A DNA stretch of 64,000 nucleotides from NCBI RefSeq assembly GCF_000026545.1, contig NC_011601.1; one strand, given 5' to 3'. Within the stretch, counting starts at the first letter, position 1, and every line of letters starts with the position of its first letter. The position numbers were made by a program. This document shows, in pieces, positions 27,581-30,500 of the stretch. Source of the stretch: Escherichia coli O127:H6 str. E2348/69. Lineage in GTDB: Bacteria; Pseudomonadota; Gammaproteobacteria; Enterobacterales; Enterobacteriaceae.

Positions 27581-30500
27581 TCAATATGACAGGTCACCGT
27601 CTGGTTGATTAGTTCGGTCTTTTCTTCATCGAACGCGGTCCAGCCGGTACGTAACAGAATAGTTTCTTTGCCAAGACGAAACGCCAGAATCTCACCAATC
27701 AACGCATGGGTATGAAGGATCATGCGGGTATCGCTAGCGTCGCAGCCGGTCCAGGCGGCAATCAGGCGTGTAAGGTGACTGTGTAGCGGACTAATCACCT
27801 GTTCGTGCACCAGGTGGTAGGCTGCCGTGGGAGAGAGCTGCTCACGGGAGATAAATTTGCTGAGGTTGACGGTGTCATCCTGGGTGAGCAGCTTAATCAT
27901 GTTTCTGCAGGCGCGAAGGATCAGTTCACGGATGGCTGCCCGATCCGGCTGTGGTTGTGCGAACAAACGTTCGGCTTCTTCGGCGTGTGGACGGAACTGC
28001 TCGCCAATAAAATCAGCAATCCACTGGGCGCAGGCGAGGTACAAATCTTCTTTCGAACCGAAGTAGTAGGTGATGGCTGCGATATTCTGCCCGGCCTGGG
28101 CGGCTATCTCGCGGGTGGTGGCGTTCATTCCATATTCACCAAACTGTGCCAGTGCCGCAGCAATCAGCTGTTTTTTCGCCTGTTCACCCTTGATTGTCAT
28201 GGCAGGATTATTCATCGCACAGTCCATTCTTAATCAAATGATTGATTAAGATTATGACTCCATAGGGGAGTTGTCCAGTATGGCTAAGAATTTTAGCTAC
28301 GCCAGTCACAGGGATAATTTATGCGCTGCGTCACAAAAACTGCTACACTCCGCTCCCTCATGACATTGTGGTTTTTGTCATTTTCCTTTTCAGTATCTCC
28401 CTGAAAACTACACCGGTAACGGTCGGGGCGGTTCGGAGTAGTTATGTCTTTCGATTCTTTGGGTTTAAGCCCTGATATCCTGCGCGCCGTTGCCGAGCAG
28501 GGTTACCGTGAACCCACCCCTATTCAGCAGCAGGCGATCCCTGCGGTGCTGGAAGGCCGCGACCTGATGGCCAGCGCCCAGACCGGTACCGGCAAAACAG
28601 CGGGCTTTACGCTGCCGCTGTTGCAATACCTGATCACTCGCCAGCCGCACGCCAAAGGGCGTCGTCCGGTACGCGCGCTCATTCTTACCCCGACCCGTGA
28701 ACTGGCGGCGCAGATTGGCGAAAACGTCCGTGATTACAGCAAATATCTGAACATTCGTTCGCTGGTGGTGTTTGGCGGTGTCAGCATTAACCCACAAATG
28801 ATGAAGTTGCGCGGCGGCGTTGATGTGCTGGTGGCAACGCCGGGACGTCTGCTGGACCTGGAACATCAAAATGCAGTGAAGCTGGATCAGGTTGAAATCC
28901 TCGTCCTTGATGAAGCTGACCGCATGCTCGACATGGGCTTTATCCACGATATCCGTCGCGTGTTAACAAAACTGCCAGCGAAGCGCCAGAACCTGTTGTT
29001 CTCCGCGACCTTCTCTGACGATATTAAAGCCCTGGCGGAAAAACTGTTGCACAACCCGCTGGAAATCGAAGTGGCACGCCGCAATACCGCGTCTGATCAG
29101 GTGACCCAGCACGTTCACTTTGTCGATAAGAAACGCAAACGCGAATTGCTGTCGCACATGATTGGGAAAGGGAACTGGCAGCAGGTGCTGGTGTTTACCC
29201 GTACCAAACATGGCGCTAACCATCTCGCTGAACAGCTCAATAAAGATGGCATCCGTAGTGCGGCGATCCACGGCAATAAATCGCAAGGTGCGCGTACCCG
29301 TGCGCTGGCTGATTTTAAATCCGGCGATATTCGTGTACTGGTGGCAACTGACATCGCTGCGCGCGGCCTGGATATTGAAGAGCTGCCGCACGTGGTCAAC
29401 TATGAACTGCCAAACGTACCGGAAGATTATGTCCACCGTATCGGGCGTACCGGTCGTGCGGCTGCTACCGGAGAAGCATTGTCGCTGGTGTGTGTTGATG
29501 AACACAAACTGCTGCGTGATATCGAAAAACTGCTGAAAAAAGAGATCCCGCGCATTGCGATTCCGGGGTATGAGCCGGACCCGTCAATCAAAGCCGAACC
29601 GATCCAGAACGGTCGCCAGCAACGTGGCGGCGGTCGTGGACAGGGCGGTGGTCGCGGTCAACAGCAACCACGCCGTACGGAAAGTGGTGCGAAGTCTGGT
29701 AACGCGAAGCCCGCAGAAAAACCGTCTCGTCGTCTCGGCGATGCCAAACCGGCAGGCGAACAACAACGTCGCCGCCGTCCGCGTAAACCTGCCGCTGCGC
29801 AGTAATCTTTTATGCCGGGCTATGCCCGGCATGAGACTGATGACAAACACAAAACTGCCTGATGCGCTACGCTTATCAGGCCTACGTGAACTCTGCAATA
29901 TATTGAATGTGCATGTTTTTGTAGGCCGGATAAGGCGCTCGCGCCGCATCCGGCATTTCACAACAAGCACTTGTCAGCCATTTGCGAGCGCGGCAAAAAG
30001 ATTTCTCTGTTTTAACGCCCACAAGCCACCCGATGCGTTACTTCTCCGCAGCCAATTGTCCGCGCAACGCCATTAAAAGGTACCCCAGGCGATTCTTGCC
30101 CTGACCATTACCGCCATCTCCCCAGTAAGCATCATTTTGCGTATGCTCAACCAGTTTTGCGGACGCGGTTGCCAGCAAGAGTGTACGCAGTTCTGCATGT
30201 TGTTCGAATTTAGCGCGAAGCGCTTTACGCATCATCCTGCTGGTTATTGCGAGCCGCTTTCCAGAAACAGAAAAACCATTACCCCTGAAAACCGAAAAAT
30301 GCCACAATATTGGCTGTTTATACAGTATTTCAGGTTTTCTCATGGCATTAACCGCCGCGCTTAAAGCGCAAATTGCCGCCTGGTATAAGGCGCTTCAGGA
30401 ACAGATCCCCGACTTTATTCCCCGTGCGCCGCAGCGGCAGATGATTGCGGACGTCGCCAAAACGCTGGCCGGAGAAGAAGGGCGGCATCTGGCGATTGAA

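Follow-up and report, generated by a model that had tools for sequence, protein, structure and literature searches.

The window, a 64,000-nucleotide stretch of contig NC_011601.1 from Escherichia coli O127:H6 str. E2348/69, carries an incomplete copy of ybiA between the helicase genes rhlE and dinG. The elements of this interval and its flanks are listed below in window coordinates, with the basis of each assignment.

28444..29805, plus strand: rhlE, ATP-dependent RNA helicase, the left flank (ORF list; annotation in the Nissle 1917 and K-12-like records)
29812..29832, plus strand: rhlE terminator-like hairpin, atgccgggctatgcccggcat (sequence inspection)
29857..29955, no strand assigned: paired REP-type palindromic units (BIME) downstream of ybiA, 95% identical to K-12 (sequence inspection)
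30038..30233, minus strand: ybiA remnant, taken as a pseudogene, comprising the last base of codon 96, codons 97-160 and the stop codon (alignments, Pfam, PDB 2B3W, RefSeq)
30038..30343, minus strand: mechanical ORF of 101 aa, in which 36 codons from dinG upstream DNA are fused in frame to the ybiA remnant (ORF list)
30233..30234, no strand assigned: deletion junction, with alignment-equivalent placements up to 30236|30237 (comparison with the leader and interior of full-length alleles)
30234..30242, minus strand: 9-nt remnant of the ybiA 5' leader, ATCCTGCTG (leader comparison)
30243..30341, plus strand: conserved dinG upstream block, which contains the dinG promoter region and is common to all four alleles of the locus (K-12 identity, allele comparison)
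30308..30327, plus strand: dinG LexA (SOS) box, TATTGGCTGTTTATACAGTA (exact match)
30342..32492, plus strand: dinG, ATP-dependent DNA helicase (ORF list; annotation)

The distance between rhlE and dinG is 536 bp in the window, compared with 833 bp in a K-12-like record, in which an intact ybiA of 483 bp encodes a 160 aa protein annotated as 'N-glycosidase YbiA'. The gene coordinates and this record agree with the interval and gene lengths on which the original prediction of a truncated ybiA had been based, and the K-12 protein is considerably longer than the approximately 100 residues that would have spoken against it. Over positions 29700-30450 (751 bp) the window is 100% identical to strain Nissle 1917. 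Relative to K-12, the identity is 96.7% for rhlE and 97.0% for the first 1,600 nt of dinG; dN/dS is 0.006 in the latter comparison and 0.006-0.05 across the two flanking genes. The rhlE product is 453 aa in the window and 454 aa in K-12 (L002:239-1603), reflecting an indel of 3 nt within the C-terminal tail, which is rich in Gly and Arg. A consensus terminator scan of 29780-30420 did not call the rhlE hairpin, and no sigma-70 promoter for either dinG or ybiA was found by a consensus scan of the same region. The palindromes at 29857..29955 are presumed, by their consensus, to be of the REP/BIME type.

The ybiA remnant occupies the same site between rhlE and dinG, on the same strand, as the gene for K-12 YbiA (b0798, PDB 2B3W), to which its residues 96-160 are 87% identical at the protein level and 90% identical at the DNA level. 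Codons 1-95, the start codon and 11 nt of the leader are missing. Mechanical ORF calling extends the remnant to an ATG that overlaps that of dinG; in BLASTP searches, the match of the resulting 101-aa ORF to YbiA is confined to residues 37-101 (YbiA 96-160), and residues 1-31 have no detectable homology. This is as originally predicted: the ORF ending at 30038 resembles only the approximately 65 C-terminal residues of YbiA, and its first 36 codons derive from DNA upstream of dinG, the match beginning at residue 37. The remnant also matches the Pfam NADAR profile (PF08719; E = 3.5e-18, 66.8 bits against a cut-off of 35.1), over positions 88-162 of 163 as against 2-162 for K-12 YbiA, in keeping with the expected loss of the N-terminal half of this domain, also termed DUF1768. 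It likewise aligns with PDB 2B3W over residues 92-160 only. Full-length YbiA consists of one globular domain with an alpha-helical core fold starting at T15 (PMC11543638), and its hydrolase activity has been described as that of an N-glycosidase or as the removal of ADP-ribose from guanosine (PMC11125620). Such activity would not be expected from half of a NADAR domain.

An alignment of the window with K-12 (MAFFT) contains a single gap of 298 bp, so a segment is indeed missing. The lost DNA consists of 11 nt of leader followed by 287 nt from the 5' end of the 483-bp ybiA, which takes in codons 1-95 together with two bases of codon 96. The endpoints were refined by comparing the junction with the full-length alleles of K-12, ST648 and a divergent strain (locus L013). 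Read in the ybiA sense, the junction in the window is GCAATAACCAGCAGGAT|GATGCGTAAAGCG; its left part matches the ybiA leader (in L013, ACCACCCGGAT|AATGCGTTTTAATGCCC) and its right part the ybiA interior (GAACAGGT|GATGCGTAAAGCG, where GTG is codon 96). The parental sites form an imperfect direct repeat, GGATAATGCG(T) in the leader and GG-TGATGCG(T) internally, although perfect microhomology spans no more than 1-6 nt there. These breakpoint sequences suggest that the deletion could have arisen by illegitimate recombination, or by replication slippage, between imperfect repeats. The junction can also be read, less parsimoniously, as an endpoint at 30243 plus the insertion of one nucleotide (internal CAGG+A+TGATGCG). 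The 9-nt leader remnant matches the L013 leader at 7/9 positions and the K-12 leader at 6/9.

On the dinG side, the window keeps 108 bp of the ybiA-dinG spacer, which is 119 bp long in K-12, and positions 30244-30341 are identical to K-12 at 98/98 sites. The original prediction had the deletion stopping just short of the dinG SOS box; a 5' truncation by deletion is borne out, but its endpoint is not so close, because the junction lies 74 bp upstream of that box, just 11 nt past the start codon of ybiA. The LexA box itself is intact at 30308-30327, as had been proposed: TATTGGCTGTTTATACAGTA has a single exact match in the window and none in shuffled sequences, and is the motif given for dinG in a published table of SOS boxes (PMC3009722). 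As the whole upstream block, including the LexA box, has been retained, the control of dinG should be unaltered, and the earlier suggestion that its regulation is preserved is plausible; SOS regulation of the gene is probably unchanged.

The frequency of the truncated allele was estimated in a sample of 5,426 complete E. coli genomes, using as a probe the 55-mer spanning the junction (30214-30268). This sequence is present in 1,120 of the genomes, once in each, and RefSeq annotates a pseudogene there in every case. Among the carriers are Nissle 1917, ATCC 25922, MNCRE44, SK1144 and avian and urinary isolates of ST95; judging by strain names, Nissle 1917, ATCC 25922, MNCRE44 and the ST95 isolates presumably belong to phylogroup B2, and SK1144 is likewise taken to be a B2 strain. 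The occurrence of one junction in 1,120 independent complete genomes rules out an assembly artefact. Conversely, the deleted 298-bp segment is found in 3,429 of the 5,426 genomes, as a rule at one place in each, and is absent from the remainder even when searched with a blastn word size of 11, which would reveal DNA similarity of about 70% or more. In the genomes that carry the deletion, this segment never occurs at a second site.

The identity of the junction in so many genomes implies a single ancestral event. Hence the conclusion favoured here, which is very probable on these comparisons, is that one old deletion took place in the common ancestor of a major lineage within E. coli, whose carriers are by name probably B2, leaving a non-functional remnant and an intact dinG control region. 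In this ancestor, a deletion of 298 bp would have removed 11 nt of leader and 287 nt of ybiA; the remnant would have been left without a start codon, a ribosome-binding region or a complete NADAR fold, while the divergent dinG would have retained its upstream block and LexA box, and with them its SOS control. The remnant lacks a start codon, a ribosome-binding region and over half of its single NADAR domain, which indicates that it is not functional, and the loss of YbiA function that had been proposed is further consistent with there being no second copy. On sequence grounds, then, the remnant is best regarded as a deletion-derived pseudogene. It has the properties of a unitary pseudogene of this kind, namely synteny with the intact gene, a contiguous loss that includes the start codon, and no intact copy elsewhere at a DNA similarity of about 70% or more.

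This allele is an ordinary lineage-fixed pseudogene that is already known at the level of annotation. RefSeq/PGAP describes it in Nissle 1917 (CIW80_RS21760) as a pseudogene, 'NADAR family protein, incomplete, missing N-terminus', of 198 bp equivalent to window positions 30038-30235, and annotates it in the same manner in APEC IMT5155 (L282_RS18395). These entries represent the same feature, but do not give the endpoints of the deletion, its frequency in the population or the context of the locus; a search of the accessible literature found no paper describing the truncated allele. Some sources list the remnant ORF as a protein, either of 65 aa (P0002, 196 members) or of 101 aa (P0003, 47 members, 'DUF1768 domain-containing protein'). 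A protein search with the 64-aa remnant returned only ORFs of up to 110 aa, such remnant calls among them.

The rhlE-dinG interval is variable well beyond this deletion, and four alleles can be distinguished.

REP and full-length ybiA: 3,429 of 5,426 genomes, continuous with the window except for the 298-bp gap
REP and truncated ybiA, as in the window: 1,120 of 5,426 genomes
espX2, a 2,013-bp type III effector gene on the plus strand: homology to the window resumes at 30247; O157:H7 and others
Genes for a 146-aa PaaA2-like antitoxin and a 93-aa ParE/RelE toxin: homology to the window resumes at 30243; MLI106K1 and others

The espX2 and toxin-antitoxin alleles jointly account for an estimated 870 or so of the 5,426 genomes; the loci examined were those of O157:H7 (L003 and L005), three of the toxin-antitoxin type (L004, L008 and L009) and three of the espX2 type (L010-L012). 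At the left end, divergence sets in directly after the stop codon of rhlE in the espX2 allele and after the terminator hairpin in the toxin-antitoxin allele; the hairpin is kept in K-12 and in the toxin-antitoxin alleles and is missing from the espX2 allele. At the right end, the points at which all four alleles meet the conserved block upstream of dinG lie within 4 nt of one another. Both the espX2 cassette and the toxin-antitoxin one share with the window allele their interval, their dinG block and the lack of a functional ybiA; they differ in consisting of unrelated genes on the strand opposite to ybiA, with no ybiA remnant, whereas the window allele is a ybiA cassette with a deletion. The derivation of the latter from a ybiA-type cassette is supported by the 9 nt beside the conserved block, which match the ybiA leader and have no match to the ends of the espX2 or toxin-antitoxin cassettes.

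Because the deletion ends so near this boundary, the question nevertheless arises of whether the truncation is itself a by-product of cassette turnover, for instance an insertion or replacement at 30243-30247 that was later lost. Three unrelated cassettes adjoin the dinG block within 4 nt (at 30243 and 30247), the endpoint lies 0-10 nt away, and the junction reading with a one-nucleotide insertion puts it exactly at 30243. Yet the junction contains no foreign sequence or scar, and the nine nucleotides next to the block still resemble ybiA leader (7/9 to L013). Furthermore, full-length alleles have just 29 nt from the ybiA start codon to the shared boundary, and any loss of the 5' end of ybiA that spares dinG control must end there; confinement of the endpoint to this 29-nt zone means that selection on dinG would most simply account for the coincidence. 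Origin through cassette turnover consequently seems very unlikely. A broader proposal is that the rhlE-dinG interval is a hotspot of site-directed cassette exchange with its right junction at 30243-30247, of which the B2 truncation is a footprint, or that the recurrent loss of ybiA (37% of genomes, by at least four independent routes) is adaptive; this is somewhat less improbable, but still appears unlikely.

Continued function of the remnant is the least credible of the explanations considered, and is very improbable. It would require that a 65-66-aa NADAR fragment, begun at the ATGATG of 30235-30230, or the 101-aa fusion be expressed as a small gene from the old ybiA promoter in the dinG block. 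In favour of this, such a promoter has to be located within the retained block or farther out, given that only 11 nt of leader have been lost; none of the sampled genomes has an interruption in the remnant frame of 65 codons; and the listing of the ORF in P0002 and P0003 shows that some sources accept it as a protein. However, an open frame of 65 codons is expected by chance with seven substitutions, the locus has the status of a pseudogene in RefSeq, the greater part of a single globular domain (PMC11543638 for the fold) is missing, AGGA is found only 0-2 nt before the ATGs of the remnant, and three conserved glutamates have been replaced.

The remnant is 90% identical to K-12, in contrast to the 97% observed for rhlE and dinG. 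Neutral drift since inactivation was rejected as the explanation of this 10% divergence, because 12 of the 19 differences are common to the full-length L013 allele or to Escherichia sp. MOD1-EC7003. The remaining lineage-specific changes are seven substitutions in 198 nt, three synonymous and four non-synonymous, the latter being an A to T replacement and the three changes of Glu (to Q, A and G). This pattern would be compatible with relaxed constraint; seven substitutions are too few to separate an omega of 1 from the omega of approximately 0.3 of intact ybiA.

A second inactivation of ybiA is present in Escherichia sp. MOD1-EC7003 (L034:2950-3290), where the gene retains its start codon and some 12 codons, the frame resumes near codon 107, and the interior has been replaced by a duplicate, about 105 bp long, of BIME sequence also present downstream of ybiA in that strain (L034:3370-3470). 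Both disrupted genes are at the same locus, keep the C-terminal third and have several variant sites in common, but the lesions are independent, an interior replacement in the one and a 5' deletion in the window. Hence ybiA appears to be a dispensable gene at a variable locus, from which it has been lost repeatedly. Among one genome for each of 100,044 species, a pattern scan detected close relatives of YbiA only in Escherichia, although intermediate orthologs may escape a method that relies upon exact peptide words. The next best relatives, at 56-70% identity (L014-L033), are from planctomycetes (Zavarzinella, Fimbriiglobus), myxobacteria, Acinetobacter and Xanthomonadales-type bacteria (Tahibacter), and the supplement of PMC11125620 includes an accession for a YbiA-like protein of Salmonella. 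This distribution hints at horizontal entry of ybiA into Escherichia.

The practical value of these observations is modest. Approximately 37% of complete E. coli genomes are without a functional YbiA; many extraintestinal pathogens belong to this group, as do the probiotic strain Nissle 1917 and ATCC 25922, a reference strain. Work on K-12 has implicated YbiA in the clearance of riboflavin intermediates, in swarming and in the de-ADP-ribosylation of DNA; as functional YbiA is missing from those strains, results obtained in K-12 cannot be transferred to them. Some pipelines predict a protein of 65 aa or 101 aa here; either ORF is an artefact of the gene's truncation and should be handled as a pseudogene. 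The boundary of the conserved block, in addition, is a natural estimate of the length of upstream DNA needed by dinG.

A distant, 'sigma70-linked' NADAR paralog has been described beside rpsU-dnaG-rpoD in EPEC O127:H6 and O157:H7 (PMC11125620); no such paralog is annotated within 5 kb of rpoD in the junction carrier SK1144 (L040). Where ybiA is retained, its 5' segment (L002:2034-2331) is at least 99% identical in 3,231 of the 3,429 genomes, and 99.3% identical between K-12 and ST648. Set against the difference of about 3% in rhlE and dinG between K-12 and the window, this suggests that one ybiA allele may be unusually uniform across lineages. In SMN013SH2 and three other cattle isolates (L007:477-986), ybiA is 510 bp rather than 483 bp, owing to an in-frame tandem duplication of 27 bp, TGGGCCAGGTTTTCCCGTCAACCTTGA, in the N-terminal half.
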